Below, one piece after another: positions 11,516 through 32,000 of a stretch of 32,000 bases of DNA. Source of the DNA: an uncultured Nitrososphaeraceae archaeon (GTDB lineage: Archaea > Thermoproteota > Nitrososphaeria > Nitrososphaerales > Nitrososphaeraceae). Position 1 is the first letter of the stretch, and each line of letters opens with the position of its first letter. The DNA is taken from contig CAWGVG010000049.1 of the NCBI GenBank assembly GCA_963825865.1, positions 1 to 32,000 on the forward strand, read 5' to 3'. Position numbers and translations under genes: made by a program. The notes under the pieces are model-generated. The model was not told the DNA's origin, ran no database searches, and was given only the letters and a program-made list of their open reading frames with translations.

Positions 11516-12911
11516 TCATTGACCCGATGCAGCTGAAATCCTGTATATCTTTCCTTCACCATGACTTGACTTTTTTTCATCAAATGTCAATATATACAAA
11601 AGACCATCTGGCCCAGTCTTGATATCTGTTATGCCACGAAAACCTGTTGCAAGAGTTACTGCTGCTACTTCATTTTTATTATCAGCTACCTTATCTGATA
11701 GACCAGAAGAAGAAGAAGAAGAAGATGATGATTGTTGACTATTGCTATCTTCATTGCTATTATCAAACTTTAGTCCTGTTCTATTTTCATTAACCTCAAA
11801 GAAGTACAGATTGCCTTTGGTTATATCGCCAACAAATATGTTATTTTTGTATTTGTCTCCAAGTTTTGATGAGTTCAGAAAAGCTATGTCTGTTACACCT
11901 ATTGATTCAAACCAGCTAAAAACAGGATCGGCATATCTGGAGCCTGGAAAATTAAAAAGCTGGGATTCATTAATACTGCTGTTTCTGGAGATGGGTCCCA
12001 TCACCTTCTTCCATCCACTGTTGAAACCAGATTTCATCATAATCTTTATCGCCGTTTTCTGCATCCCATAAGGTACCAGTTACTGGATCAAATGCTAGTC
12101 CAAAACTGTTTCTTATGCCATATGCAAAATATCTGCTCATAGCTGAGCTATTGCCATTTTTCTCAGATAAAAATGGATTATTCTTAGCTGGATAGCCATT
12201 ATCAGGGTTTATTCTTAGTATTACAGATGTATCATCTGGTTCTGGTCCATCTATGAAATTCTGAAGTTTTCCCTGTCTGTTAAGGTCTCCTATAACTGCA
12301 TATAGATATTGATCAGGACCAATTGCCAATTTTCCACCAGGATGATTTTGACCCTCTGCAGGAAGGTCTAAAATAAGCTTGGGGTTTATAAGCGTCTCTC
12401 CATTCCATTGGTATTTGTAAACTCTATTTCTTACAGGCTGGTCACCTTTGGCTGCTTCTGAAAGATAAAGAAAAACTTCTCTACTGTTATTGCTGCTGTT
12501 GCTGTTACTTGCTTTAGTTGCTATTCCCAAAAGGCCACGACAGCATATTCGAGTGGAATTATCAATATCGACTTTCAGTACAGGTTGGTCTTTTAATACG
12601 CCATTTGAAACTAGACGTACTTCTCCATTATTCTTTTGTAGAATCAAAATATCTTTGTTGTTGTTGTTGTTGATAAATGCCATACTAGTTGGATAAGATA
12701 ATCCTTGTACTACTAATTCGGCTCTTAAGTTAGGATCATTAAAAGTTGGTTCTGTAGAACTTGCTTCTGCTTCTTTGATATTGGTGGCATAGACATCACT
12801 AACAAAAAAGTGTCTGCTATAAACACTAAAATTTGATAAAATAAACAAAACCATAACTGCTAATGCTATTACTGGTATAGTAGAAGAACAATAATAATAA
12901 AGTCTATACAT
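11516..12911 (-). pseudogene. PQQ-type glucose/sorbosone dehydrogenase beta-propeller, one frameshift near 12027-12033
   Basis: It has a signal anchor (MYRLYYYCSSTIPVIALAVMVLFIL) and the motifs RGLLGIA, NHPGGKLAIGPDQYLYAVIGD, ILRINPDNGYPAKNNPF and AYGIRNSFGLAFDPVTGTLWDAENGDKDYDEI. The frame then switches to GFNSGWKKVMGP...GPDGLLYILT...GKIYRI. Poly-Asn and poly-Ser inserts are present. Confidence 0.8.
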
Positions 12912-13029
12912 AGAATTAATTTCGTTCTTATAACACATAGTAAGTATTTGTTCTTTTTGAACTTTAGAACAAATAAGAGCAATAACAACAATAAGCATAA
13001 AGTCTGCCCATGTGAATTGCATTTAAGCG

Positions 13030-14260
13030 TATTGTTTTATTCATCTAGTGTATGACCATATCCACACATAACAGATTGAAAGGATATCTACCCATTCGAG
13101 GCCTTACCTCACTACAGTCTTTATCCTCATTGTTAAGGATGGATTGCCACAGTTAACTTGACGAGGCTATTCTCTTACCTCAAGCTTTATGTCGTGGTTA
13201 TGACTCCTTAACTGTCATTATATTTTGGAACATATTCTCTTCTTTCTTTTATAACCCAATAAACAACCTTCAGCAATTTGGATGCAGCAGCAACAACTGC
13301 TTTTGAATTACCTTTAATTTTAGCAAGTCTTTCATAAAACCTTGTGATGCTAGTATTCTTATAATTTCTAATATGAGCACGGACACATTCTACCATAACC
13401 CATCTCAGATACCTGCTACCTGTCTTGGTAATAAATCCGTGATATGTTATACCACCTGAGCTATGTGTAGAAGGTACCAGTCCTGCATATGAACAAAGAT
13501 GGTGTGAATCAGGAAATCTGTTTATGTCTCCACCAATTTCACTTACTATCAATAGAGCAGAGTAATATCCAATGCCAGGTATTGTCATTAACAGCTTGGC
13601 AATATCATTTTCATTTACACATAACTTTATCTTTCTAGATACATCATTAATTTCTGAATCTAGAGATTCTATTATACGAAGGTAACTATCAATTCTGTAA
13701 TCTTTGATCTCCTTTAATTTCTCAATATGTTTACGAGTAAAAGGATGAACACCTGTTATTCTTACACCCTTCATCAGGATAATGCTATGAATCTTGTTCT
13801 TCATCTTGGTTCTCATTTTCACCAATGCAAGCCTGTGCCTGACAAGCTCACGTAGACCCATTGTTTCCTTGTCTGGAATGTAGCACTCTGCTATGTATCC
13901 ACCTCTAAGTAAATCAGCTAATTTCAACGCGTCTATTTTGTCTGTTTTTATCTTAGCTGTTGCTATAGCTTTTGTTTTGACAGGATTTGATAATACTACA
14001 TCAAGGTGTTTTTGCTTTGATAGGTATTCGTATATGTTATACCATACACCTGATGATTCCATTACTACCTTTGGATTTTCGTTATTGATATCCTTGAAGA
14101 ATTTGCCTACTTCAACCAAATCATTATCTATCCTTGAATTTCTAATCAGCTTTCCATTTTCATCAAGTGCAGCTATTTGAAGATACTTCTTGTGAAATCC
14201 ATTCCTATGTACATAGTAGGTATTTTACTGTCTAAGTTGGATTTAGGTAACTTTTTATTC
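13030..14260 (-). mobile_element. IS110-family insertion sequence (boundaries approximate)
   Basis: It holds the transposase gene, about 180 bp of 3' non-coding DNA and under 100 bp of 5' non-coding DNA. It sits between the sugar dehydrogenase start region and an HTH gene stub. No long terminal inverted repeats are visible, as expected for IS110. Confidence 0.7.
13208..14214 (-). CDS. IS110-family transposase (DEDD N-domain plus C-terminal transposase_20-like domain), with a frameshift at codon 7
   Basis: MYIGMDF is followed after a 1-nt shift near 14195 by HKKYLQIAALDENGKLIRNSRIDNDLVEVGKFF...VVMESSGVWYN...PGIGYYSALLIVSEIGDINRF...LCSYAGLVPSTHSSGG. The track ORF 13208..14119 begins only at an internal TTG. 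Confidence 0.85.
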
Positions 14261-17370: not shown

Positions 17371-17582
17371 GATGAACGGTCAGTTCTTAGAGCTTTGTTA
17401 GATACGAGAGCAAAAGGGTTAGATGAAAAGATGCTTGTAACTGCATCGTATGCAATCGCTTCGCTAGTTGAAAAGACTCACTTGAATGAAAACTATGTAA
17501 TTCCCAAAGTAAACGACCAAGGGTTCTCCCAGTTGTGACAGAGACGTTAAAAGAGGCAATCGTACCAGTATCTACTAAATGA
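17371..17582 (+). pseudogene. Malic enzyme C-terminal fragment, with a frameshift near 17525
   Basis: VLRALLDTRAKGLDEKMLVTASYAIASLVEKTHLNENYVIPKVND fits the malic enzyme tail (RGALD.RA..i.eeM..AA..AiA.lv....yiiP). VLPVVTETLKEAIVPVSTK* follows in another frame. Confidence 0.55.
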
Positions 17583-17689
17583 ATGTAAAAAAAAGAGGAT
17601 TATTTTAGATTAAATCGTGAGAGTATCAATCTCGTCCGCTGCGCCAGTTAATACTTGTATTCGTACGGAGTTAGGGGGAAGAAAGGGCT

Positions 17690-17902
17690 TCAGTGCGCAT
17701 ATAGCTGCCCATTCCTGCGAAAGTTTCGGGTCCTGTCCTCATCGAGTTTAAAGACTCGAACAGGAGGAGAAGGACCGAAGTCTGGGGGATTGGAGGTTCC
17801 AGGTATTGGTGTCGCAGTTGTGATATTGAATGTTATCTGCCCACGCGGTTTTTTTTCGTTTACTTCAAAATTTACAATAGTTCCTCTGTATTGACCAGGC
17901 AT
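17690..17902 (-). CDS. Hypothetical 70-aa ORF in a GC-rich patch
   Basis: MPGQYRGTIVNFEVNEKKPRGQITFNITTATPIPG... No family recognised. It may be another fragment. Confidence 0.2.
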   Translation of the reverse strand: MPGQYRGTIVNFEVNEKKPRGQITFNITTATPIPGTSNPPDFGPSPPVRVFKLDEDRTRNFRRNGQLYAH

Positions 17903-18008
17903 CGCTACTTTATAGAAGTAGAACTATTTATACTTTTCTTGTAATAGTGGATTTCTTCATCTAGAAACAATAGCTTTGAACGAGCAATCAATAGTCGAGG
18001 TATGATAA

Positions 18009-18040
18009 TGGCGCGCTTAAACTATTATACAATCGCGCCA
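18009..18040. other. GC-clamped hairpin
   Basis: tggcgcg(18009-18015) cttaaactattatacaat cgcgcca(18034-18040). This GC stem in AT-rich DNA lies 40 nt upstream of repeat copy C. Confidence 0.6.
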
Positions 18041-18079
18041 ACTAAAATTATAGATAAATATATATATTTAATTTTAGTA

Positions 18080-18136
18080 GACCTATGCTTCATATAACGC
18101 ATGGATGAATGGATATAAAATATCTGTCTCAATCAT
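18080..18136. repeat. 58-bp intergenic repeat, copy C
   Basis: Nearly identical to 5697-5754 (2 substitutions, 1 indel). Confidence 0.85.
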
Positions 18137-18434
18137 AAACATGTTAGAAACCTACCATCGCTAGAATAAGTGACTGAATGTATGCTTGTATATTCAGGTC
18201 CTATACTAGTCTTCTCTCCACTCTGCATATTAGTCCAATTATACCAAGGAGTTTCTATTTCTTGGCGTCCAAAGCAGGAGATAAAGCAAACACATTTGTC
18301 GGCCACGACAAACAATAAAACACAACTGCTATAATAACAAACAAAAGTAACTGCAGAATGAGACTGTCCAAGTCTGCATGTTTGAAGAAAATCCTCCTAT
18401 ACTAACTCAGTTTCTTTATGATATCGGAATTCTT

Positions 18435-20027
18435 CATTTTTCTACCCCTGTTGAATTGTCAAGAAACAGCTTTTCGCAGGATGACTATTTGTAAAGTTAA
18501 ACATGTTCATAATTGATCCAGCTTTGGCATCAAATGATTGATCTCCAATACGCTTCAGGCCCCAATTATCCTCTATAAACCTAATTATGGATGTCTGGTC
18601 TGTAATCTCATGATCAACATAGTTTACCTGGAGATATTATCAATAAAGGAAGGCGAGGCCCATAACCACATCTGTCTTGATAAGCACCTGCAGGAGCGTG
18701 GCCACAAAGGCCATCCTTGCCAAGGAGCCTATCGTAAACGGGGTCGTTGGATTGACTGACTATCTGTGGCATTACATGATCATACCATCCATCTGAGTCA
18801 TCATAAGTTATAATGACTGCTGTACTATTCCATTGTGGTAGATTTTGCAAGCGGTTAGTAGTATTAACTAGAAAAGTCTGTTCATCAAGTGGATTAGAAA
18901 ATCCTGGATGTCCACTTTGGAATGAGGGGGCCTTGAGAAAACTAACTGCAGGTAAATTGCCACTTTCACGGCTCTCCAGAACATACTCAGATTATATTGA
19001 TGATTTGCTTGGTCACCATTACCGACCATTGCTACTGAAGTTGGGGATAGATGATGAGGATTGGCTGTAGAATTATAGTACTGGAAAGGTTCAACATCTG
19101 GATAATAGTCATTCTGTTGAGTATTATTATTAGTCAAGATAACTCCGTTGTATGAGCAAAGCCATTTACCATTAGCTATTTTAATAGATGGTGTGAAACC
19201 TGCTGAAAACCATCCCCATGTTACATTATTTTTCTCATTAAGACGATCACCTATGTTCTTATTCTTATCTGACATGACTATTGTAGGATTTGTGTGATTT
19301 GAACAATCATCATTGGTGGGATCTAGGTTACCTATCAAGGTACCTTTAACAACACGGTTTTTAATGTCGGTTGATATAACATGACCTTTACTGTCTCTTG
19401 GTATCACACCATGAGTCTGACCAGAAATAAAGTTAAGATGTCCTGGAGTTGAAGGCCCAAAGGTAGGACTAAAGAAATTATCGCTCATTGCAAAGTGTTG
19501 CGCATAGTTCCATAATGCTGTTACAGTATTACCATCATAATGTCCCATGACCTGATGTAGGCGGCAGGCACATTACAATAATCTCGATAAGGGGATGTAG
19601 AATTTACAAAGTTGTCCAAAAGACCACCGTTAGTTGCATTCTGCTCAGCTGTGTAACCATGATTCATGTCACAAGTTACAGCTCGGGAGCGATCTAGACG
19701 GAATGGCTGATATTGATTTGTATTATTAGTCAATTGGGCTCCAGTTAAACCATTAACTGATGGTGTGTTTGGAGAAGGTGAAAAGTGAGGTTCACCAGGT
19801 AGATTTGTAGTATTAGGATAAGTAGCAAAATAGTGATCGAATGAAATATTTTCTTGAAAGATGACTACAAGGTGTTTAATAGGTTTAGCTGTTGAAAAAT
19901 TACTAGGAGCAGCAGAAGCTTTCGTTGCAACTGATATTAGCGACGTACCAGATAAAATTGACGAGATTATTAGTAATAAAGCTAAAAGTACATTTGTTGA
20001 TATCTTATTCAATAGGTGCAGTTGCAT
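18435..20027 (-). pseudogene. Phosphoesterase-family acid phosphatase / phospholipase C (AcpA/PlcN type) with four frameshifts
   Basis: A signal peptide is followed by IKHLVVIFQENISFDHYFATYP. After shifts near 19550, 18965, 18625 and 18480 the pieces read VMGHYDGNTVTALWNYAQHFAMSDNFF..FGPSTPGH, then GNLPAVSFLKAPSFQSGHPGFSNPLDEQ...AVIITYDDSDGWYDHV, then YVDHEITDQTSIIRFIEDNWGL, then KLFLDNSTGVEK*. Confidence 0.85.
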
Positions 20028-20478
20028 TGTAACTTATTTATGCTTTCGTCAGTATACAATTATTATTCCACACCCATCTAACCAAAAAAGTAAAGATTGT
20101 CATTTACTACTATAAATAACGATTATTAGCTGGCTTCCTTCGCTGACGAAAAACGACCAACATTCTATATTTATCTTAAAACCTTCAATGGGTTCTTTTA
20201 TTGCAGAAGATCTTGCTTGAATGAATCCTATTGCCAGTAACGATAATCCTATACATAATGATCTAATAGTGTGTCTAAAATATGCCGGAGTAGTGTTTAC
20301 ATGATGTTACTAAAAGGCTGTGAGCAGCCTCGATAACTTCTGTACGCGAGCAGTCGACATTGAGTGCTCCATGAATGTGTACCTTCAATTGGGGAACCTG
20401 AATCCCACCCTCTATATGAGAGTGTCACAACCTGCGCCATAACTAATAGAAACCCTTTAATCTTTACATTTCTTTTTT

Positions 20479-20885
20479 TCAAACTATCTGGATGATTGAT
20501 ACTTGATGCGCTATAGCATGTGATGTATTGATAAAAACATACCTGATATTAATACTACCACTGACTTTAATGGCTGCGGCTGGTAGTATTGTACTGGATA
20601 ATGATAATACCGCATTTGCAAAAAACAAACCAGTAAATAATGGCCCGGCTGCATTAGGTTTTAGACCAGAAGTCAGAAATCTTAATTTTAAGCCCAAGCC
20701 TCTTTGTTGCTCTTATTACAGCACAACAAGCCTTGATGGCTGGACTTGAACCTTCTATATTTTGACTAACCGAATCTATTGCTGTATCTCTTACGAAATC
20801 ACTTAGACCGAGTTGTTTTGAAAGCCTTTCAACATACTCTGCTGCATCTAAAGCAGGAACATAGTCTATTTCTGACATAGTTTGC
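20479..20885 (-). pseudogene. TFIIB (TFB) cyclin-fold remnant, frameshifted, no zinc ribbon
   Basis: [61 protein letters not shown] fits the TFB repeat (dyv.Rf...L.l...v...A......sG.sP..iAaA.iy.A). A shifted frame further on holds AAAIKVSGSINIRY (compare VTEVTIRNRY). Confidence 0.5.
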
Positions 20886-21032
20886 ATAACGCTTTTTGTC
20901 GCGATTCCAAAATCCATACACGAGGATCGGATCCGAGAGAACAGTCAGGTATTCGACTTCGATCTTGCGCCTGATGATATGAAACTCCTAGACTCGCTGA
21001 ACGAGAATTTGCAAACAGTATTCTTTGATTAG
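20886..21032 (+). pseudogene. Aldo-keto reductase C-terminal fragment
   Basis: ...[44 protein letters not shown] matches the AKR tail (IPKS...Ri.EN..vFDF.L...dm..l..Ln). It is GC-richer than the flanks and no upstream barrel is present. Confidence 0.6.
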
Positions 21033-21449
21033 TGATGATCTGATTGATCGTGTGCTCTGGATGAAAAGTTCAGCGTTCCATGCATCTCCAATAGCGGTAA
21101 TCGATCTTATAACACAATGCATACGTGATGACAGAAGGAAATGACAAAAGCTTCTTTTGTAATTGGGAACATCAATTGAGCAGTCTTCTTACGTTGTTGT
21201 TTCTAATGTACATTAGCTAAAAACCATTCTAGGAAATTGGAAATAACTAGCACACAGATTGAATCTAATATAGAGGCATATTTTTCTAAGGCGGATGTCG
21301 TGAAAAGCTGGCGTTATTATCCCAGTCATTCTTTTTATAATTATCATCGCTTGTATTTTGAAGAACAATATAAGAAGGCTACAAGTAACTAAGTTACGTG
21401 TCATAGATAATCAAGGGTTATAACAAAAATTCAACCCCGTTATTCTACA

Positions 21450-21944
21450 ATGACAACAAATTCAAAACTAAGCAAGAAAGTGCAGATACCGGCGGCAGTC
21501 ATAGCTGTTACTGCTGTTTTTTTGACAGGAATGTTGGCAGTATATCCGGCAGTAGCTGCTGTAGGTTAATCAATGAATACGATTACTACTATGGCTCCAG
21601 GATATGGAGGGCAAATTCCAAATATCACAGGTTCAGTAAACGTTGGACAGACAGCTAAAAGTTTTATCAAGGATAATCTCAAAATACCTTTTTCACAAGC
21701 TGCCGACATTGCAGGAAAACAAAACACCAATGGTACTGTGGTAGGCGGTCATCTGGGAATAGTGCAAGGATATCTGGTATACAAATTCTTTGCAGTGAAT
21801 CCTACAAATCATACAGGGTATCTAACTATTGTTGATGCTGGAAATGGCAAGGTATTGTATACATCGCAAGGTCAACAAATGGGAGGTTCCTTTTGTACAC
21901 ACGGAGCAATTGGTGGAGCATTTGGAGCACGTCCACTACACTGA
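21450..21944 (+). pseudogene. PepSY-domain protein with an in-frame TAA between the signal anchor and the domain
   Basis: MTTNSKLSKKVQIPAAVIAVTAVFLTGMLAVYPAVAAVG*SMNT... has its TAA at 21567-21569 in the same frame. PepSY-like sequence follows: FSQAADIAGKQNTNGTVVGGHLGIVQGYLVYKFFAV...LTIVDAGNGKVL. Confidence 0.6.
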
Positions 21945-22186
21945 TTGAGAAAAGGAAGAGAGTCTGTCCCGGAAGATTGACCGGACCGCGTCATTCTCGG
22001 ACCTGATAGATCATGAGATCGCGCCTGGAAATATGATGTACAGGCGGTGAGGCGCTACGGGCGAACATCGTCGCCAATGTCGCCACCAACCCTTTCTTTT
22101 ATTCCGAATGTATAAACTCAACACCATATCGTTGAGTGATAACTGATTATTTTTTGCAACTAGGTAGCTGTTTGCTATATCATACA

Positions 22187-22966
22187 CTAGCATAGCTTTA
22201 TGTCCTCTGCATGCAGTATCTGTACATGATTATCCATCCATTGAGTTACCGCAATCCCAAATGCTGAACTCCCCCATGCAGGATCTATACCCATTGATTT
22301 AGAACTAAAGTATGAAGAACCAATAGCGTCAGGATCGTATTTCCTTCCTTTCTCTATTGCTGCTTCTATGTCTTTTGTGTGGAATACATTACCTATTTTA
22401 CCATGATATTTTAGGTTGTATTCCCGTTCAAATGAGGGTGATTGTTTAGCTCTTTTTTATCTTGGCGGTATATTTTGCCAATTCCATAAGTATAATCCAA
22501 GAATATGCGTTTGTACAAACAAGTGTCTTCAGACTCTTTTTCTATTCTTTCAAACAAACCATCAGGTGCATTAGGAGTTGAAACCATCACAATATATGGA
22601 TTTGATTTTGCAATGTACCTCTCGCTTACATCCCTAGCATCTTGCTGCTGTCCTGGAGGAAAGAAATCAGCTTCGTCTAACAGTATGAAGGATACGTTAG
22701 GTAGACCACGCATTGCATCTAAATGATGCGAGGGAAATGCTTAAAGAATCATTTTCATAGTCATATAGAGGCTTATCAATTCCATCTTTCTGAGGCAGTC
22801 CAATAATGTGATTAAGGCAGCAACATCCTTTTGTTCTTATGTCTTCTTGCTTCTGTTCTTCAATATTCCATATCCAAAATGGTTTACCCTTCAGTATTTC
22901 GCTTAACCGAGATTGCTGCTGTGTTGTTGCTAAGCAAACTATTTTCTTTAGATCTTTGAAAGTCAC
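22187..22966 (-). pseudogene. Terminase large-subunit-like ATPase/nuclease, frameshifted, internally deleted and 3'-truncated
   Basis: MTFKDLKK...CCCLNHIIGLPQKDGIDKPLYDYE is followed by HLDAMRGLPNVSFILLDEADFFPPGQQQD...IVMVSTPNAPDGLFERI (Walker-B-like), then YNLKYHGKIGNVF...MGIDPAWGSSAFGIAVTQWMDNHVQILHAEDI in three frames. The Walker-A region is missing. Confidence 0.6.
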
Positions 22967-23275
22967 TCTTCGACTAGTTATACATTTACATTGGCCGCAT
23001 TAGAAACTTTCGATTTGCAATATAATTAAACGTATGTTACTTAAGACTAGAATCTTGATTGATTTAAGATGTAAGAAGGTTAGAAGAATGATAATCAATT
23101 ATGATCCACAGGTTTGATAAGTACTGTCATTATTCTTCAGCTAACCTAGATAAAAATTTGATATAACAGACCAGATTAGTCGATTTGTGCTATCGATGTT
23201 ATCTGTAATACATAGATTATCCTAACAGTATAATGGTGCATCAGGATCAAGAAATGTCTTATATAGTACACAGAT

Positions 23276-25315
23276 ATGAATACTACATTGTCAGAAGGGA
23301 ATTTAGTAGAAAAATCACCAGTTTCGGATAACAGTGGAGATACTACTTATAATGAATGGCATACTGGATATATTCAAGGCAATACTTTTCACCAGAAGGA
23401 AGTCAAGTACAAAATAATTGATGATATGGCGATTTTTCAAGGGGATATTATTCTTGCCAAAACTCCAGAACACCTAGAAAAGCTTAGTCAAAAGCCTAAG
23501 GTGCAAAGCGAACAGGAACCACCTGCAGCAAGACATGTATCTGTAAAGGCCATTGTAAGACATGGGGATGAGCTTCGTTGGCCACGTGGAGAGATACCTT
23601 ACGTAATTCAAAATACACTTCCAAATCAAGAGCGCGTTAATGATGCAATCAAACATTGGGAGGAGAGAACACCAATGCGCTTTATTCAGCGCAATGATAA
23701 CAACGCTCGAATTACCCAAACTACGTCTCAATTATACAATATGTTCGCAAGCCAAACGAAAGATCAGACCTTTTTCATTGCTCATCAGCCATTGGGATGC
23801 AAAACTGGGGAGAACAGAATATAATTATATCTGATCAATGTGTTACTGGCGATGCAATACATGAGATTGGACATACAGTAGGACTTTGGCATGAGCAAAG
23901 CAGAAGTGACAGAGATGATAACATAAGAATTCTAACTATTAATATTGAGCCCAAAGACATACAGAATTTTGACAAACATTTTACAGATGGTGATGATGTA
24001 GGGGAATATGACTACTGCTCAATAATGCATTATGGTACGAATTTCTTCTCTAAAAATGGACTTCCAACAATAGAACCAATAAAACCGTTAAATGGTTGTG
24101 TATTAGGACAAAAGAACGGACTAAGTAATGGAGATATAGGCAGCAGTTATTGAAATGTATGGAAATACATCTCCTACCATATTGAAAAATGCTGATGGTA
24201 GGCTGGAAGTAACTCATAGTACGTTCGGATGGCTATTTGTACCGTAAACTACAGATGGCAGCAAATAGTAGTAGTGGATGGGATAAGGAATGGAATTCAT
24301 TGGAACTGCGAGCAACGTTTTTCTTCTGGCCAGAAACCTACAATAGTAAAGAATTCTGACGATACTCTAGACGTCTTCTGGGTTGATGTTGGAAACCTAA
24401 ATCATGCTTACCAGAGTGCACCAAATGGTTCATGGAGTAATGAGAATCTTCATGAAAGTTATGGACAAGGATACCTTGGTGCTCCTGTAATACATGATGT
24501 TGGTAGTAGATTAGATGCCTTTTGGCTAAACCACGACGAATGGAGAACACTCCATCATGCACGGCGAGACACATTGTCAAACCGTAGATTTAGTTCTACG
24601 CAGGTTTTAGGAGGACCAACGTGGTCTCCTAACAGAAAACCTGCTGTAGCACAAAATGCTGATGGTAGGCTGGAGATATTTATAACAGGTCTGGATAGAC
24701 AGCTATACCACAAATGGGAGGAAACTACACCAAATAATAGTAACCAATGGTCTAACTGGACTTCACGGGGAGGACCCTTACTAGCTGATCCTGTGGTAGC
24801 TCGTAACACGGATGGTAGGCTGGAGGTATTCGCAGTATTTGGTAATAATAGGGCACTATGTCATAGATGGCAGACTACAAGAGTCAAAGATAACACTGGC
24901 AAAGACACTGACGAGTGGAATTGGTCTAATGGATGGGATAGCTTGGGAGGATATTGGTCTGCTCGTAAAACACCCGCAGTAGCATTGAACGCAGATGATA
25001 GATTGGAGGTATTTATGATGGGTAAAGAAGACCAACTGTATCATACATGGCAGACTACAAGAGATACCAGGTACTGATAGATATGATTGGTATTCCGAGT
25101 GGGAAATGATTAAAAAAACGAAAAAAACTCCAGATGGAAAAACTGAAATTGAAAAGTGGCCGCTAAGCGGCAATCCTGCTGTGGGGCGTAATCCTAACGG
25201 TACATTAGATGTATTTATGATAGATAAATATGGAAATGTCAACCATAGATGGCAGACTACAAAAAATAACGGTCCTGGCAAGTGGAATTGGTCTGATGAT
25301 TGGCAAATAATATAA
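23276..25315 (+). pseudogene. Astacin (M12A) zinc metalloprotease fused to a 7-blade beta-propeller lectin-like domain, with at least 5 frameshifts
   Basis: The catalytic motif IHEIGHTVGLWHEQSRSDRD and the Met-turn SIMHY are intact. Seven repeats of the type NADGRLEVF...LYHxWQ...WSxWxSLGG follow. Frame changes lie near 23702, 24139, 24212, 24322 and 25070. No signal peptide is seen. Confidence 0.85.
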
Positions 25316-25690
25316 TTTCATTGTGCTTGCATAAAATTCAGAAAACTTGATTTATTGTCGTCTCACCAGTTTGCTCTTCCTGCTCTTCCTCTAACTGATC
25401 TTTGTCTTCATCGTAATCAGGTTCGTTTGCTTCTTTCTCATCCTCATTGCTATTACCTAGTGACTTATAGTGTCAGCTTATTTGGTTTTTTAAGATAGCA
25501 ACATACATTTTTGTCCTACGTAGAATATCATCAACGCTGTCTTTTGTCAATACACGTCGTCTGCTACGTCCAAAAAAGCAGCATCAAGTCACCACCCAAA
25601 GTCCATAGAAGATGTTGTAAGTTTAGTAGTAGATGGTGAGATGATGCAGAATACGTAATCATATTGTGCATGACTATCTAAGAGATACCA

Positions 25691-26114
25691 TTGTATCAAC
25701 TTACAGAGAGTGCACCTATTGTAAAAGTAGAACACAATTTGCATGCATCAAGTGTGGATATTGCTACAGCTGACCACTGGAAGAAAGAGGAATTGGACAA
25801 AGTTCGATCAGAGTCCTTAGCAACTACTGCTAACTCTGCATTTTTAGAGAAACATTCGCAGGCTGCGATAATAATAGCAGAACAATCATCATCACAGCAG
25901 TCAGCGACAACAACAACAGCAAACAAAAGTTATTGATGTATGTGGTCAACAAATAGAACCAATCTGCAACTATCGTACATGCCATCACATATTTTCAGTT
26001 CATGGTCACAATACTCACATATGCAAATGCCGCCATCCCATCAATTATACTATAGGAGTATCCTCAATATCGCCATTAACTAAAGAAGAGAGAGGTTCTA
26101 GGATATATGATTAG
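25691..26114 (+). pseudogene. Hypothetical protein with a C-terminal Cys/His zinc-finger-like module, with an apparent frameshift in a low-complexity tract
   Basis: The track ORF ends ...SSQQSATTTTANKSY*. The next frame continues without any start codon as QQQQQTKVIDVCGQQIEPICNYRTCHHIFSVHGHNTHICKCRHPINY...RIYD*. Confidence 0.3.
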
Positions 26115-26189
26115 AAAGATAGTACATTATTATGATCAAAAACATTTGTATTACAAAGATAAAGGTCGGAATTTCATATATTATTATGT

Positions 26190-26393
26190 ATGTCTCTCAT
26201 GAAAACTCTAATTTATTTTTTTAATATATTAAAGATACAAGAAGATAACGAAATTTATAGAAATGCGTTGGCACTTGTACAAAAAATTCCAATAAAATCT
26301 GTAAATGTAGATCGTGATAGCAACGACAATGATAGTAATGAATGGATTAGTGCTATGAAGACTATAGCATATGCATATTCTTCACTAAAATAA
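26190..26393 (+). CDS. Hypothetical 67-aa protein
   Basis: ATG-initiated ORF with no recognisable family. Confidence 0.25.
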   Translation: MSLMKTLIYFFNILKIQEDNEIYRNALALVQKIPIKSVNVDRDSNDNDSNEWISAMKTIAYAYSSLK

Positions 26394-26424
26394 TACTACT
26401 TCCTATATCTTTTCCCAATCACAA

Positions 26425-27196
26425 ATGTCTGACTTTCTGACCTTATCTGCAAAGGGTATAGAAGAGAAAAGAATGAGTTCAGAAATAATAGACAATTTAA
26501 TCTTCAAGATTTATAGAGATATTATGGAAAATTATCAGGAATTTAGTCAAAATTTAAAGTCAAACTACCCTGGAATTATTGTTGACGTTATCTCTATTAT
26601 TAACCAAGGTATGGATACTAAAGGAACCAAAGTAAGTTCAATTAGTATTGGGAGATACTACCAATCAAGAAAGCAGCAAGCAACAATGAGTAAAGAAGAA
26701 CGGGAAGAGGAAGGGAAAACTCCAGCAACAGTAACAGCAACAACAGCAGCCGCTATCCATAAAATGAAAGCCCATTACTATCATTGTACTCAAAGAATGA
26801 CCTTGTTGAAAGTCTTTCCCAAATAACAAATAGAGGAAGAAAAGAGATACAAGAATCACTTGCAAGATTGCAAGATTCAGACCTAAAACGGATAAGTGAA
26901 CTATGCCACAACTATAGTAGATTACAACACTATAGCAAAATAATAACAAAAGAAGGCTCACAAGAACAATTTAAAAAAGAAATACAAAGAGACTAGGAAG
27001 AAAGCTGAGATTTCATCAACTTGGACGAGCTGCTAACTCTATAAGAAGAGCTCGAACCTATATTGAGAATATACTTGATAATAAATTCATACCTGATGCA
27101 TCGCATGGTATTAATCATGTTAAACATAACCTTGAGTATGGTTATCAGTTGATGAATCTAATTGAGCGTACAAGAAGAAGACAAAGGATTCAATAA
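26425..27196 (+). pseudogene. Composite ORF ending in a truncated HD-domain N-terminus, with two apparent frameshifts
   Basis: Three consecutive overlapping frames read MSDFLTLSAKG...AAAIHKMK, then PLLSLYSKNDLVESLSQITNRGRKEIQESLARLQDSDLKRISEL..., then KLRFHQLGRAANSIRRARTYIENILDNKFIPDASHGINHVKHNLEYGYQLMNL...*. The last piece looks like the start of an HD phosphohydrolase but stops before the second His/Asp cluster. Confidence 0.35.
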
Positions 27197-27411
27197 CAGC
27201 TACAGTAGCCAAAGGTATTATTTATTTTAGTTTTCATCTATTGTAGTCTGTAACTGTAGAATCAAAAGAAATAAGACTATTCTAGCCGGTACAACCATTG
27301 TTGATAGAAAAGCCAGTTCTCTTGTTGTGAAGGACACCTGTAGCAGGAGTACAGACCCAGTCGCTACTACTACCGCCGCATTCGGGTCCGAAGGATTTCC
27401 ATTGATTGTAT

Positions 27412-27510
27412 TTTTTAGCGTGCCTCTCTATAGTGTAATTTGTTTACAACGTGTGACCGGTCACACGGTCACACGCTCAAAGTGTTATATCCTAGGACAT
27501 AGAGAGAGTT
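27412..27510. repeat. Structured ~100-nt element, copy 1
   Basis: The outer stem is ctctcta(27424-27430)/tagagag(27500-27506). The inner part is the perfect 16-nt palindrome GTGTGACCGGTCACAC (27451-27466) followed by a second GGTCACAC. The first 33 nt match copy 2 in 31 of 33 positions. Confidence 0.8.
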
Positions 27511-27810
27511 TTAATTAGATACGTTTCTGTGAACCATTGCTGTTAATCCGCTTGATCTAAGTATATACTTGAAGATTACAACTAATGTCATAGCTCTTAA
27601 ATTGCCTTCTATTCTATGTCCAAGCAAAAACAATCCAATTGCCATAGACCACAAAATAACACCATTTACAGGATTTGTATGCAAGCCAAACAAATCGCCT
27701 AAAATTAAGGCTATTCCTGTAACATAAAAAGGGGATCCTATGCAATGTAAAATTCTATTAATTGGATGTCTGTGACTACTCTTTATTGCTTTAATAAGGC
27801 TGAAAGGCAT
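27511..27810 (-). CDS. DUF962 / Mpo1-like small membrane protein
   Basis: 99 aa. HRHPINRILHCIGSPFYVTG...LFLLGHRIEGN fits the DUF962 His motifs, and there are 2-3 TM helices. Confidence 0.6.
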   Translation of the reverse strand: MPFSLIKAIKSSHRHPINRILHCIGSPFYVTGIALILGDLFGLHTNPVNGVILWSMAIGLFLLGHRIEGNLRAMTLVVIFKYILRSSGLTAMVHRNVSN

Positions 27811-28075
27811 TTGTGAATATCTTATAGATTTATTATCCTATATGCCTATAAATTAAGCAACATCCTATAGCCATAATTCTTACATCCTTGTCTCCTTTCT
27901 GTAATGGTTATAGCAGTGCCTCCAGTAACCTATAAAATAACTCTTCTAACCTATGACAACGAAGTATTGTTGTTGTAGGTTCGGAGACTGCGGAGTTACT
28001 TCCTGTATGTAAGGGTCTTTCTTAAACAATACCTATAATCACAAATATATCATATTTCCCAATTGCATATATTAT

Positions 28076-28549
28076 ATGAGAATTTTGAATGCTAGCCCGG
28101 GATTTGGAGCGCCATTAACAGAGAGTGAGGTTATCAACTTTTTGACAAACAGCAAATTAAATATTCATATTGGTACACTTGATAAGAAAGGAGAGCCAAA
28201 TATACATCCAACATGGTATTACTTTGATAGTAACGATAATAGATTTTACATTGAAACATCTAAGCAGTCAAGAAAAACAGAAAACATGGACACAAATAAT
28301 ATCATTTACTATTGTGTTGATGATCCTAGCCCTCCATACAAAGGAGTTAGAGGTAAGGGAAAAGTCAAAATTCATGAAGACATCAGTCATAATATCCCTA
28401 TAGCTGAAAAGATAATGATCAGATATCTCGGAAGTCTTGAGCACCCAATGGCAAAAGTTCTTATGAGTAGTGTTAAGAATGGAGATTCAATTATTTTAGA
28501 AATATCTCCTAGTTATTATTCAACTTGGGATTATAGCAAAAGGAAATAG
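28076..28549 (+). CDS. Pyridoxamine 5'-phosphate oxidase (PNPOx/FMN-binding split barrel) family protein
   Basis: 157 aa. ...IGTLDKKGEPNIHPTWYYFDSNDNRFYIETSKQSRKTENM...YKGVRGKGKVKI is typical of the PNPOx-like family. Confidence 0.7.
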   Translation: MRILNASPGFGAPLTESEVINFLTNSKLNIHIGTLDKKGEPNIHPTWYYFDSNDNRFYIETSKQSRKTENMDTNNIIYYCVDDPSPPYKGVRGKGKVKIHEDISHNIPIAEKIMIRYLGSLEHPMAKVLMSSVKNGDSIILEISPSYYSTWDYSKRK

Positions 28550-28653
28550 CAGGAAGATAATAAACATACTTGCTAGGTACGTAATATGCATACTATGGTC
28601 TACTCCTCGTATAGGGGGCTATTGCAACTTGATCGCATGATATTTTTATTATA

Positions 28654-28745
28654 TTTTTAGTGTGCCTCTCTGTAGTGTAATTTGTTACAGCATGTGACCG
28701 AGTCACAGTCACAAGCTGAAAGTATTTCCGACCCAGAGAGACGGC
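28654..28745. repeat. Structured ~100-nt element, copy 2
   Basis: The outer stem is ctctctg(28666-28672)/cagagag(28734-28740), an A-T to G-C covariation relative to copy 1. The inner hairpin is TGTGAC cga GTCACA (28693-28707) followed by a second GTCACA. It lies about 65 nt upstream of the macro-domain ATG. Confidence 0.8.
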
Positions 28746-28806
28746 TAAAATTTTAGTGAGAAAAATGAAAAAATGTATCTTTTAATGATGATGAATATGT
28801 GATTAT

Positions 28807-29372
28807 ATGACCGTAATAGTAGTAGATGAGGCAAAGCTAGGTAGCAACAAAATCCTTAGACTTGTTAAAGGATATATCACAGAAAGAGATGTCGATGTCA
28901 TAGTAAATGCTGCAAATTCTTATCTAAAACATCGTGGAGGAGTTGCAGCTGCCATAGTAAGAAAGGCTGGAGCAATAATTCAAGAAGAAAGCGACAGGAT
29001 AGTAGCAGGAGGCTTTGTCCCGGTTGGTTGAGCAGTGATTACTACAGCTGGAAAATTACCATGTAAGGCAGTAATACATACAATCGGTCCAAGTGTGGGT
29101 GAAGGTGATGAAGATAATAAGCTACTAGAGCAGTTCAAAGTACTCTGGCATTAGCTGCAGGAAAGGAGTTCAAAAGTATTTCAATGCCAGCAATAAGTTC
29201 TGGAATATTTGGTTTTCCTAAAGATAAATGTGCAAAGATACTTGTAGAAGAATCAAAAAGGTTTCTTGTAGAAAATAAATCTTCTCTTGAATCTATAGAA
29301 TTTTGTATATTTGATAATGAGATTCCATATTGCTTTGAAACTGAATTTGTTAATGTCAATGATATAAAATGA
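28807..29372 (+). pseudogene. Macro domain (ADP-ribose binding/hydrolase) protein with an in-frame TGA and a frameshift
   Basis: [36 protein letters not shown]...[24 protein letters not shown] has its TGA at 29029-29031. A shift near 29135 leads to [37 protein letters not shown].... Confidence 0.8.
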
Positions 29373-29624
29373 AATGAAATGTAGATAATGACCTTCTAAG
29401 GCTATCTGCTAACCAATTCTATATCTATTGGTAAGACAACACAAACATCATCAACAACAACAACATATACTCAATCATTTTGGACAAAAGGTGTGCCAAT
29501 GCCGCCTACACCAAGAACAGAAGTTATTACCTTATCGATATGGTCATACTATAGTTGGATAAAACAGTATGCTTAAATGCAGTTCACAAGGTAGTTTTAT
29601 GCATTTTTGTTCTAACAGAAAAAC

Positions 29625-31052
29625 CTACCACCATTGATTTACTATACAGTCTAGCAACGTTCCGTCGAATGTTATTATCCCATACTCATACTTTTCTGTC
29701 GTATCTGAATCTCTACGCTGCAAATAAAAATCTCTATTTCTTGTATTGTCGTCTTTACCTAATTTTTGAAAAGCTGTTTCCTTATAGGAGTGTGCAGAAT
29801 GATAATTCGGATCGATCTCCAAAGCTTTATCATAAGATATTATAGCTTCCTCATATCTGTCTAAGAAGTAAAGAATCTCGCCTTTACTTTTCCAGATATA
29901 TGGATTGTCTGCGTATTTTGAGTTATGCTCTAAAGCCTTATTTATGCAGTCTAAGGCTTTCTCCATCCTTTCTCTTTCATCGAATCCATCCATACCACAT
30001 CTCCTATCTGATTTATACGCAAGAGTATAACAAAGTTGAAGCCATACATCTGCTGAGTTATTTTTATAATTTGAATTGATTTCACTGGCCTTATCATAGC
30101 ACTTGATGGCGTCATCCCATCTACCCCATCCTTCATGAATCAAACCTTTCTTAATCCATGCCTTTGCATGATTCGGATTTATCTCTATTATCTTATCGTA
30201 GCAGTTCATCGCCTCAATTTCATGATTAATACATTCATCTCTGGACTCATAGGCATCGAGAAGGAATAAGCCTTTGTTATACAATAGCTCTATATTATTA
30301 TTATTATTTGGATTTTTCTTGACAGCCTTATCATAAGATTCAATGGCTTCATTACACAATATCCTTGAAGTATAAGGCGTTTTCCTATTTACCTCTACTA
30401 TTTTATCATAACATTTAATGGCCTCATCGTATCTTTTCAATTCATAAAAAGTATTACCTCTTTCATGCCATATCGTAGCGTCATCATCATTTGGATTTAG
30501 TTCTTTTACCTTATCATAACATTGCTGCGACTCTTCATATTTTTTTAAAAAGCAAAGAATATTGCCTTTTCTATTCCACGCTTGAATATTATTTGGATTT
30601 ATTCCTAATACTCTATGATACCATACAAGAGATTCTTTATATTTTTTTAAAGTATAAAGAGTATTGCTCTTGCCAACACAGGCTTCAAAATTATTTGGAT
30701 CCGCCTCTATTACTATATTATAGCATTCTAAAGCTTCATAATAATATTCGTACTTTTTATGAAACGTGCCTAACTTGATAATAGCATCAAGTTTGCATTT
30801 CAATATTTCAGGATAGTCAATGTTACTTATCTTGAGAGCTTTGTCATAGCAGTTTATACCTTCATCGTATTTTTCCAGTCTACAAAAAGCATCACCTTTT
30901 TTCTTCCATGCTTCAAATAGATTTGAGTTTATTTGGATAGCTTTATCATAACGCTCAATAGCTTCTTTATATCTGCATCTATCGTAAAAGGTATTGCCTC
31001 TTCTATACCATTTCGATCCTTTAACTGGTATAGCAGCATCCGAATCGGCCAT
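29625..31052 (-). CDS. TPR-repeat protein (475 aa), intact
   Basis: More than 10 TPR units of the form W..kG..l..l..Y.EAi.cYDKa.eInP. Confidence 0.85.
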   Translation of the reverse strand: MADSDAAIPVKGSKWYRRGNTFYDRCRYKEAIERYDKAIQINSNLFEAWKKKGDAFCRLEKYDEGINCYDKALKISNIDYPEILKCKLDAIIKLGTFHKKYEYYYEALECYNIVIEADPNNFEACVGKSNTLYTLKKYKESLVWYHRVLGINPNNIQAWNRKGNILCFLKKYEESQQCYDKVKELNPNDDDATIWHERGNTFYELKRYDEAIKCYDKIVEVNRKTPYTSRILCNEAIESYDKAVKKNPNNNNNIELLYNKGLFLLDAYESRDECINHEIEAMNCYDKIIEINPNHAKAWIKKGLIHEGWGRWDDAIKCYDKASEINSNYKNNSADVWLQLCYTLAYKSDRRCGMDGFDERERMEKALDCINKALEHNSKYADNPYIWKSKGEILYFLDRYEEAIISYDKALEIDPNYHSAHSYKETAFQKLGKDDNTRNRDFYLQRRDSDTTEKYEYGIITFDGTLLDCIVNQWW

Positions 31053-31208
31053 CTTTCCATCAGTTATTTAATGAACGTAATTTATTTATTTTTTCACACA
31101 TGCAAAGTCAGTTCAACTACAGACCAAGATGCCTTCTTGTACATGCAATCAAAAACATAATCCAAAGTTATGATGTGATATTTATTTTGGTGTCCATACG
31201 CAGCCATA

Positions 31209-31334
31209 TTATTTTGTTATCCTAAAAGAATCAACTATTTTTTGTGCAGTTGGCAAGAATGTATTGTAATATGCCGCATCGCCATCAAATGAAAGCCAAT
31301 ATACTATACCATTCTTTATAGTAAAAATGTTCAT
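31209..31334 (-). pseudogene. C-terminal remnant of an unidentified protein
   Basis: MNIFTIKNGIVYWLSFDGDAAYYNTFLPTAQKIVDSFRITK*. The same frame continues upstream (…GKNGNCISYPSRPKIIE). An adjacent frame reads TNYGYSFRLPWEK across an A-run. The function is not assigned. Confidence 0.2.
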
Positions 31335-31446
31335 TTCGATTATTTTTGGTCGTGAGGGATAGCTGATGCAATTACCATTTTTTCCCAGGGTAACCTGAAA
31401 GAGTAGCCATAATTAGTATCCGCTATTAGTGGAACTATAAAAAAGA

Positions 31447-31623
31447 AGTCCTCCTGGGGATCTGAATGATCTTAAGGCAAACAAAAATGTTACTTACTGT
31501 TCTGGCGGATATAGAGGAAATATGGTTGCAGAGGAGTTAAACAAGCAAGGATTTGATGCTGTAACTATTGAAGGAGGCTATTCTGCTTGGAAAGACGAAG
31601 AGATAAAGACAAAAATAGAATGA
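31447..31623 (+). pseudogene. Rhodanese-domain C-terminal half, no start codon
   Basis: GDLNDLKANKNVTYCSGGYRGNMVAEELNKQGFDAVTIEGGYSAWKDEEIKTKIE* includes the active-site loop CSGGYRG. A TAA lies directly upstream and the N-terminal half is absent. Confidence 0.6.
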
Positions 31624-31923
31624 AGAATAAGATTGTCGAAGACTTGGAAGCTGAACCAGAGCTCGAAAAAGTACAAGAAGAGCAACAACAACAGCCTGTT
31701 CCAGTAACGCAGTGAATTATCTAATCCAGACAGATAGACTTAACGATATGGCATAAAAAAACAATTCCTAATTTCTTTTTTGAATAGCAGAATAACAATT
31801 TTGGGTTTGGTGTAGGTAAGGAGATAATGAATATATTCTCTTCATACCAGTAGATTATGTTCTCCTTTGTTCAATCAAGAATTGAACTATTTTAGTATAT
31901 GGAAAATCAACTATGATCAATAG

Positions 31924-32000
31924 AATAATGAAAACATAAAGCCCCTGTTTAAGGTAGTTGGAATGTATTGCACTTCATGCAAACCAATTGTAGTTAATTT
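31924..32000 (+). CDS. Start of a heavy-metal-associated (HMA) domain protein, partial at the window edge
   Basis: NIKPLFKVVGMYCTSCKPIVVN contains the GMxCxxC metal-binding motif. The start codon is unclear, because an in-frame TAG lies at 31921-31923 and no ATG precedes the motif. Confidence 0.35.

Follow-up and report, generated by a model that had tools for sequence, protein, structure and literature searches.

The 32,000-nucleotide stretch of DNA analysed here (the window; contig CAWGVG010000049.1 of an uncultured Nitrososphaeraceae archaeon, G+C content ~35%) carries near its end two homologous direct repeats of an intergenic element, at 27412-27510 (copy 1) and 28654-28745 (copy 2), accompanied by genes for a small DUF962-like membrane protein, a PNPOx-family flavoprotein and a macro-domain protein (Table 1). 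The copies are spaced 1242 nt apart; their 5' blocks match at 31 of 33 nt, and their mean column identity is 82% over a 144-column alignment with the flanks counted in. A 25-nt core pattern with up to three mismatches allowed matches the window at these two sites only, with 0 matches expected from 100 shuffles, and an nhmmer search of the window with a profile of the two copies returned no further copy. Thus, the ~100-nt direct repeats described in an earlier note on this DNA are real.

The same note correctly placed copy 1 against the DUF962-like stop codon, which the 3' T-run of this copy overlaps, and copy 2 ahead of the macro-domain gene, whose ATG at 28807 lies 62 nt downstream. It also let the copies flank exactly two genes. 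The open reading frames (ORFs) at 27511-27810 (-) and 28076-28549 (+) are indeed bracketed, but a third co-oriented copy is present ~3.36 kb further on, 13-105 nt past position 32000 (L001 5792-5700, L002 2414-2323, equivalent to window 32013-32105), so that the window's edge is partly responsible for the picture of a single cassette between two copies. The third copy has the outer arms CTGTGG/CCACAG and is followed ~200 nt downstream by a frameshifted GmrSD/DUF262 gene (type IV restriction-like). L001 (99% identical) and L002 (98%) are soil-metagenome contigs from ENA and the closest relatives of the window, over 17.5-32 kb of its length. Comparison with L001 reveals 47 mostly 1-nt indels in 14.5 kb (17500-32000), two of them within copy 2 (at 28685 and 28704), whose core has one T fewer in the window than in L001. 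The macro gene, intact in L001 (188 aa), is split in the window into 28807-29031 and 29184-29372.

Table 1. Features of the element copies and the associated genes (window coordinates unless a contig is named; CM, covariance model)
Feature	Position	Strand	Remarks
Copy 1, whole element	27412..27510	+	5' TTTTTAG, nested inverted repeats, 3' T-run; CM 66 bits, E=7e-14
Copy 1, outer inverted repeat, 5' arm CTCTCTAT	27424..27431	+	
Copy 1, conserved core: J1 GTAATTTGTTTA and inner half-site A CAACGTGTGAC	27435..27457	+	
Copy 1, half-site B (GTCACA)	27460-27465	+	
Copy 1, half-site C with extension GTCACACGCTC	27468-27478	+	
Copy 1, half-sites B and C together	27460..27478	+	
Copy 1, outer inverted repeat, 3' arm ATAGAGAG	27499..27506	+	
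Module gene 1, 99-aa membrane protein	27511..27810	-	weak Mpo1-like/DUF962 match, E=7e-4, under the Pfam cut-off
Module gene 2, PNPOx-family flavoprotein	28076..28549	+	E=8e-11
Copy 2, whole element	28654..28754	+	includes 3' TTTT run 28751-28754; CM 88 bits, E=2e-19
Copy 2, outer inverted repeat, 5' arm CTCTCTG	28666..28672	+	
Copy 2, conserved core: J1 and half-site A CAGCATGTGAC	28677..28698	+	
Copy 2, half-site B (GTCACA) and half-site C GTCACAAGCTG	28702..28718	+	
Copy 2, outer inverted repeat, 3' arm CAGAGAG	28734..28740	+	
Macro-domain gene	28807..29372	+	frameshift-split in the window
P0001	L018 1935-2129		
P0002	L008 10001-10300		
P0003	L019 666-791		

Anatomy and distribution of the element

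The element is 95-120 bp long and comprises two concentric inverted repeats of conserved sequence. Read on the + strand, it starts with TTTTTA(G), followed by TGTG and the outer arm YCTCTCTGGGGTG, the 5' linker J1 (NAATTTGTTTA; short layout form AATTTGTTTA), the inner arm A (CARCRTGTGAC), a spacer of 7-36 nt, the inner arm C (GTCACAYGYTG), the 3' linker J2 (AAAGYATTTTT; layout form AAAGTATTTTT) and the outer arm ACCCCNAGAGAGRGG, after which a few bases lead to a terminal TTTT(A). The consensus of the outer inverted repeat is YCTCTCTGGGGTG / ACCCCNAGAGAG, with imperfect arms of 7-20 bp. The spacer often contains a proximal GTCACA (giving TGTGA-N4/5-TCACA) and further GTCACA/TGTGAC units; a second tandem GTCACA can be read in each window copy, in agreement with the duplicated arm reported earlier. 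Core block J1 plus half-site A is the most conserved part of the family, with 22-25 identical nt. The palindrome possesses a polarity, because the A/T-rich J1 and J2 are conserved yet not mutually complementary; in 14 copies the + strand has 26 runs of four or more T and three runs of four or more A. TTTT(A) is found on both sides of most copies and TTTTAGTG on both sides of copy 2, although the flanks are T-rich anyway; the 5' T-run occupies a fixed position and resembles part of the element.

Several copies depart from this plan. L019_b is a short variant with outer arms only, and half or degenerate copies occur in L027 (at 7129, 7801 and 7912) and upstream of the macro gene in L031. In the variant at L027 9845-9943, J1 is replaced by the reverse complement of J2, which makes the palindrome more perfect. 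This copy scored on both strands, but an invertible switch was rejected because only the 5' linker is changed and the orientation is the same in four samples. A coding role was also dismissed: the open frames that cross the element are accidental, with a start codon that is not conserved and stops that vary.

Searches of related genomes with nhmmer and a covariance model, of the kind the earlier note had proposed, retrieved ~17 distinct copies, full or partial, every one in Nitrososphaeraceae-type DNA. An exact scan with a first pattern gave no match in GTDB genomes. The second pattern, AATTTGTTTACARCRTGTGACC, a block conserved across all three window-lineage copies, matched one of 185,579 GTDB genomes (contig L003 of a Nitrososphaeraceae metagenome-assembled genome) and four JGI contigs (L004-L007). 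Because gene callers sometimes translate the element, we also searched a protein collection with an alignment of element translations, which returned three spurious "proteins" whose contigs are L008-L021. These "hypothetical proteins" of 41-99 aa (P0001-P0003, Table 1) are mere translations across the element, P0002 being recorded on 21 contigs. Homologs of the macro protein supplied loci L022-L031 and L042-L051, and homologs of the PNPOx protein loci L032-L041. No element was found beside the PNPOx homologs or beside macro genes of 69% identity, nor were there copies in nine unrelated Nitrososphaeraceae loci. In 428 kb of compared DNA the arm and half-site motifs are confined to the elements. 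The family is therefore low-copy and confined to a single subclade, with its copies grouped around the macro gene. As a repeat would lead one to expect, contigs L005, L006, L007 and L021 terminate at a copy or close to it; the copy beside PriX/PolB (L022 9381-9489) includes a run of 10 N, hence this assembly has its break or scaffold join within the repeat.

The nested-palindrome family is previously undescribed. An Rfam scan of the window gives 0 matches at the gathering score, and at E<=10 none that falls on the element, in keeping with the earlier failure to recognise a known RNA class; elsewhere in the window it yields two chance-level snoRNA matches only (E ~9), and a tRNA/tmRNA scan found none. 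The literature searched, on repeats and MITEs (miniature transposable elements with inverted repeats) of Thaumarchaeota and on promoter maps, contains no description of the element.

Pairing, arrays and breakpoints

Both window copies are predicted to fold into an outer CTCTCT.../...AGAGAG stem and an inner TGTGAC/GTCACA hairpin, as had been noticed before, and they do so better than dinucleotide shuffles: the z-scores of copies 1 and 2 are -3.9 and -2.9 for + strand RNA and -4.5 and -6.9 for - strand RNA; those for single-stranded DNA are -4.4 and -3.0. From an A-T to G-C change in the outer stem the earlier note had inferred a covarying stem under selection for structure. The difference itself is real, but it represents a single event, common to three near-identical versions of copy 1, and the larger family does not bear out the inference. 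We fitted 17 distinct + strand copies to a structure model and shuffled their 3' partners as a control. Standard pairs fill 81.7% of the cells against 81.9% in the shuffled sets, double-sided pair changes number 4 against 4.3 expected, and the covariation score of 0.120 compares with 0.117, 205 of the 500 shuffles being as high. This negative result is conservative, because a structure-fitted alignment leans towards structure.

Individual pairs behave accordingly. Six of the 11 inner pairs never vary, one inner-stem pair occurs as A.C (7 copies), A-U (6), G-C (2) and G.U (2), and several outer-stem pairs are non-pairs in 7-9 of the 17 copies; where stem positions vary they change independently on the two sides, producing mismatches. 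G.U is tolerated in + strand RNA, and A.C or C.A would be G.U on the - strand; over 18 copies there are 32 G.U/U.G and 34 A.C/C.A mismatches, and since the two kinds are equally frequent neither strand carries an RNA signature. The mean energy of outer-arm duplexes is -17.9 kcal/mol for a copy's own arms versus -16.9 kcal/mol for arms from different copies, and the 5' arm of copy 1 pairs better with the 3' arm of copy 2 than with its own. Given the single event and the absent covariation, the pairing derives from conserved inverted-repeat sequence and not from compensated evolution, and it looks as would be expected of protein-read half-sites or terminal repeats. Statistical support for a structured RNA is nil; more generally, one compensatory-looking change between paralogous palindromes does not amount to evidence of RNA structure.

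Within a locus the orientation of the copies is constant (3/3 in the window lineage, 4/4 in L018/L022, 3/3 in L004 and 5/5 in L027), and the elements are invariably co-oriented with the macro gene. They form arrays with a spacing of 0.7-3.3 kb, which divide the surroundings of the macro-domain gene into modules of one to three genes; the window-lineage array has three copies in 4.7 kb, all on the + strand, as are the four of L018/L022 and the three of L004, and that of L027 has five element-like sequences in 3 kb. The position of the element relative to genes is diverse. Among independent loci, the upstream side has a + strand gene before the element in five and a divergent - strand gene in four. 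A + strand start codon follows 40-75 nt downstream of five copies (win_c2, L003_a, L004_a/L018_a, L004_b and L027_2; the genes concerned are macro, a Kelch-repeat gene and a 187-aa ORF) and 165-200 nt downstream of L019_a and of copy 3, which precedes the GmrSD/DUF262 gene. A convergent gene is faced in three or four loci (copy 1/DUF962, L003_b/L004_c/methyltransferase and L022_x/PriX). No single role as promoter, leader, terminator or 3' untranslated region (3'-UTR) fits all copies.

The element is present upstream of the closer macro orthologs (>=83% amino acid identity to the L003 protein). It is not tied to every macro gene, being absent at the loci of 69% identity and degenerate at 83%, in L031, where the 3' half and the leader are kept upstream of macro and the 5' half has decayed. 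A tie to the PNPOx/DUF962 pair was likewise rejected: PNPOx homologs of 79-83% identity from other Nitrososphaeraceae lie in three other, unrelated contexts, where neither DUF962 nor the element is present. In L042 and L043 an identical 199-aa macro protein is preceded (~530-740 nt upstream) by a nitroreductase in the one and by NUMOD3/small ORFs in the other, with the junction near AGCAATGCTATCTGATG and no element there, hence the neighborhood of macro is hypervariable even without the repeat. Small proteins with an N-terminal helix-turn-helix (HTH) are encoded divergently upstream of the first array element in L018 (2-496, -) and L027 (6195-6749, -). They show weak HTH_23/HTH_38/HTH_7-type matches and are alike only in the HTH (30% over 53 aa), and neither is related to the protein encoded upstream of copy 1; a conserved adjacent DNA-binding protein was therefore discarded, as homology among the upstream proteins of L018, L027 and the window lineage does not go further than a generic HTH.

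Comparison of related loci reveals that the modules differ and that several breaks of synteny fall in or next to the elements. L003 and L004 are 89-91% identical across the Kelch-repeat gene and across the methyltransferase gene, but the segment enclosed by the same pair of elements holds the macro gene in L003 and the unrelated 187-aa ORF in L004. Segment identities, in the order upstream flank, 5' half, 3' half and downstream flank and against a background of ~60, are 61, 70, 85 and 84 for L018_a vs L004_a, 59, 72, 85 and 81 for L003_b vs L004_c, and 91, 93, 82 and 71 for L003_a vs L004_b. L019 lacks 7.5 kb found in L022, and its L019_b joins the 5' part of the after-macro element to the 3' part of the PriX-side element at a TATTT microhomology shared by the two linkers. 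When L019 is compared with L018, 95% identity extends as far as TGTGAC in the element that precedes macro, past which L019 has a foreign 3' half and ~95 nt; homology resumes (96%) inside the outer 3' arm and continues through macro into the next element. Homology of L026 and L018 starts exactly at the 5' edge of an element. Altogether, five or more synteny breaks or deletions have an end within an element, for the most part in its central spacer, or at an element edge. Four lie between half-sites A and C, which would suit either a central crossover or homologous recombination seeded in the J1 plus A block.

The divergence of the elements is decoupled from that of the adjacent macro genes: between L001 and L003 the macro third positions are 67% and the element 5' halves 93% identical, while between L003 and L019 the respective values are 97% for macro third positions and 85% for the element 5' halves. 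Stronger purifying selection on the element than on the neighboring coding sequence holds for one genome pair and is reversed in others, and was therefore rejected; the decoupling points to a mosaic history of the elements and not to simple constraint.

Other ORFs of the window are split while being intact in L001, namely those of a phosphoesterase (18868-20027), an astacin/beta-propeller protein (23276-25315) and a 257-aa protein (26425-26996); ORF splits in the window are probably assembly errors rather than pseudogenes. The glucose/sorbosone dehydrogenase gene at 11516-13022 (-) appears as two overlapping ORFs (182 and 350 aa), a probable frameshift. A weak covariance-model match at 696-801 (+; E=0.33) corresponds to a different palindrome (GGGCATGTAAC...GTACATGCCC) and is probably due to chance.

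Candidate explanations and known systems

We tentatively favor the explanation, to which we give somewhat less than an even chance, that the element is a DNA-level nested palindrome recognised by a protein, and that its co-oriented copies are module boundaries and recombination breakpoints. A trans-acting DNA-binding protein (a recombinase, transposase or regulator) would read the conserved half-sites as sequence, on the duplex or on an extruded-hairpin form. Co-oriented copies would serve as recombination substrates, and the modules between them, of which the DUF962-PNPOx pair may be one, would be swapped, inserted or deleted by homologous, microhomology-mediated or site-specific recombination. 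Several points weigh against such a scheme. Pfam places no recombinase, integrase or Y1/HUH transposase next to the element at any of the examined loci; the only mobile-element genes seen are an IS110-family gene, 13 kb upstream in the window, and IS6-like copies, whose terminal repeats are unrelated. The breakpoints do not share a single nucleotide position, one of them being the TATTT microhomology in the linkers, and no target-site duplication or empty site has been demonstrated. Moreover, the strand asymmetry of the T-runs (26 vs 3) hints at a transcription-related polarity that the model leaves unexplained, and any repeated functional sequence, such as sibling small RNA (sRNA) genes or promoters, would yield similar breakpoints.

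A structured RNA, either sibling sRNA genes or cis-acting leader and 3'-UTR hairpins, in which the 5' TTTTTA would be an archaeal TATA box, the 3' T-run a terminator and the linkers single-stranded recognition sequences, is unlikely. It would account for the folding of both window copies on either strand, for the T-rich box at a fixed 5' position and the T-run after the 3' arm in most copies, for a stem core that is invariant while loop length varies, and for outer-arm duplexes that are on average ~1.8 kcal/mol more stable on the + strand. Sibling sRNAs are typically tandem co-oriented paralogs, and the bacterial clusters of this type share with the element the ~100-nt intergenic co-oriented paralogs, the conserved primary sequence and the hairpin followed by a T-run. 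The element differs from them in its lack of covariation, with G.U and A.C equally common, only ~82% of the cells paired and mid-stem mismatches frequent, as well as in the lack of any Rfam match and in its internal T-runs. Oligo-T runs terminate archaeal RNA polymerase, and the T5-T6 run in the 3' linker of ~6/14 copies should thus end transcription before the outer 3' arm. If TTTTTA is the presumed TATA box, the start would fall inside the structure, ~25 nt downstream and past the outer 5' arm, hence the outer stem could not be in the RNA; L019_b retains the outer arms only. A cis-regulatory DNA module copied to several genes of one regulon, with TGTGAC/GTCACA units as transcription-factor operators, A/T-rich linkers as BRE/TATA-like boxes and T-runs as polar terminators or insulators, we regard as quite improbable. 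Half-sites that vary independently, as protein-binding sites would, the nearly fixed spacing of the proximal TGTGA-N4/5-TCACA, the downstream start codons at 40-75 nt (five copies) and 165-200 nt (two more), the retention of the 3' half and leader upstream of macro in L031, the T-runs on one strand only and the small divergent HTH proteins beside the first element in L018 and L027 are all consistent with it. On the other hand, three or four independent copies (copy 1, L003_b/L004_c and L022_x) face a convergent gene and have no + strand gene to drive, four copies have no upstream + strand gene to terminate, the ~100 bp conserved go far beyond the requirements of an operator, the extended half-sites A and C are separated by anything from 7 to 36 bp, a better TATA-like box of the macro leader itself lies downstream of the element, and the HTH proteins are not clearly homologs of each other.

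The earlier alternative that the repeats are the ends of a mobile cassette comes nearest to the comparative data, but no known cassette system fits them. Of these systems the closest are the attC sites of integrons and of clusters of attC sites lacking integrases (CALIN), including the VCR-type repeats of Vibrio chromosomal integrons, which are likewise imperfect palindromes, ~60-140 bp long, in which two inverted-repeat pairs are nested around a variable centre; by length (95-120 bp, spacer 7-36 nt) the element falls within the 57-141 bp used to define attC. A CALIN is defined by two or more attC sites that share an orientation and are spaced by less than 4 kb (PMC9668308), an arrangement also seen for the window copies and for the arrays of L018, L004 and L027. 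Archaeal integrons have been described (Ghaly et al. 2022, PMC9668308), and in chromosomal integrons the sites resemble each other within a lineage (PMC9668308), as do the sites of the element. Both kinds of array hold short, mostly co-oriented gene cassettes whose content differs between relatives, and attC arrays, too, often have no integrase nearby; a CALIN would have none. However, the attC core boxes R'' (RYYYAAC, 5') and R' (GTTRRRY, 3') are absent from all copies, the ends of which read TGTGYCTCTCT... and ...AGAGAGRGGCA with no AAC/GTT boxes. There is also no IntI: Pfam scans of the window ORFs and Pfam tables for all loci contain no tyrosine recombinase. Unlike in attC, the interior and the linkers are conserved and not only the ends, breakpoints are central and not at the 3' end of the site, and some inter-site segments hold several genes in both orientations.

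We considered a dedicated, integron-like but non-canonical cassette system, in which two nested pairs of recombinase-binding repeats would surround a crossover spacer and an unlinked recombinase would excise and insert single-gene cassettes. The attC-like build of ~100 bp, the different cassettes between the same sites in related genomes, the four breakpoints between half-sites A and C and the greater likeness of sites within a lineage would agree with such a system, which we nevertheless hold to be improbable. Besides lacking the core boxes, it has no integrase within 27 kb upstream, 5.7 kb downstream or at the other loci; the L019_b junction is in the linkers and not in the centre; the left boundary of one swapped segment lies near a start codon, outside the site; some inter-site segments are multi-gene and large, at 3.3 and 7.5 kb; and homologous recombination at the 22-25-nt identical core gives the same pattern. 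Its most extended form, a Nitrososphaeraceae integron-like platform of palindromes without attC core boxes, where an unlinked recombinase would shuffle modules at a hypervariable locus, appears doubtful to a similar degree, and so does the assignment of single-gene macro-domain, PNPOx, Kelch, GmrSD and other modules to such a platform.

The element also resembles MITEs and small palindromic repeats (Correia/NEMIS, ERIC, RUP, REPIN and archaeal MITEs), as an intergenic non-coding repeat of ~100 bp with terminal inverted repeats, a hairpin fold, T/A-rich flanks and degenerate and truncated copies, and in promoting rearrangements and assembly breaks. In contrast to MITEs, its copy number is very low, its copies are clustered and strictly co-oriented and not dispersed in both orientations, it shows no clear target-site duplication or empty-site polymorphism, and there is no autonomous partner with matching ends in the compared DNA. 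The Y1_Tnp domain of RAYT proteins (of REP/REPIN) does not appear in the examined loci, and a virus or provirus origin was rejected upon 0 IMG/VR matches for two patterns. IS6/IS240-type transposase genes or fragments recur near macro (L022 102-563, L026 3608-4179, L023 6479-7039 and L001 75-407), and in L022 such an insertion sequence interrupts the Kelch-repeat gene. As a parent or neighbor of the element this group was discarded, since its terminal repeats (GGCTCTGTTAACTTAA) are unrelated and it is separated from the element by ~110 nt in L026. An IS110-family transposase (DEDD_Tnp_IS110 and Transposase_20) is encoded at window 13208-14119 (-); a link to IS110 bridge RNA was rejected, as that gene is 13 kb away and has no element-like sequence near it. 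Judged by these likenesses, the element appears to work like attC sites and MITEs in its effect on the genome while being a member of neither family.

In practical terms, the element breaks assemblies and yields spurious calls of 40-100-aa ORFs in public protein sets. The Nitrososphaeraceae, ammonia-oxidising archaea, are major soil nitrifiers whose genome plasticity is poorly understood. If the palindromic site postulated in our preferred explanation marks the gain, swap and loss of modules, it would offer a concrete handle on the diversification of their accessory genes, and if a dedicated recombinase exists, it would represent a second, independent cassette-capture system beside integrons.

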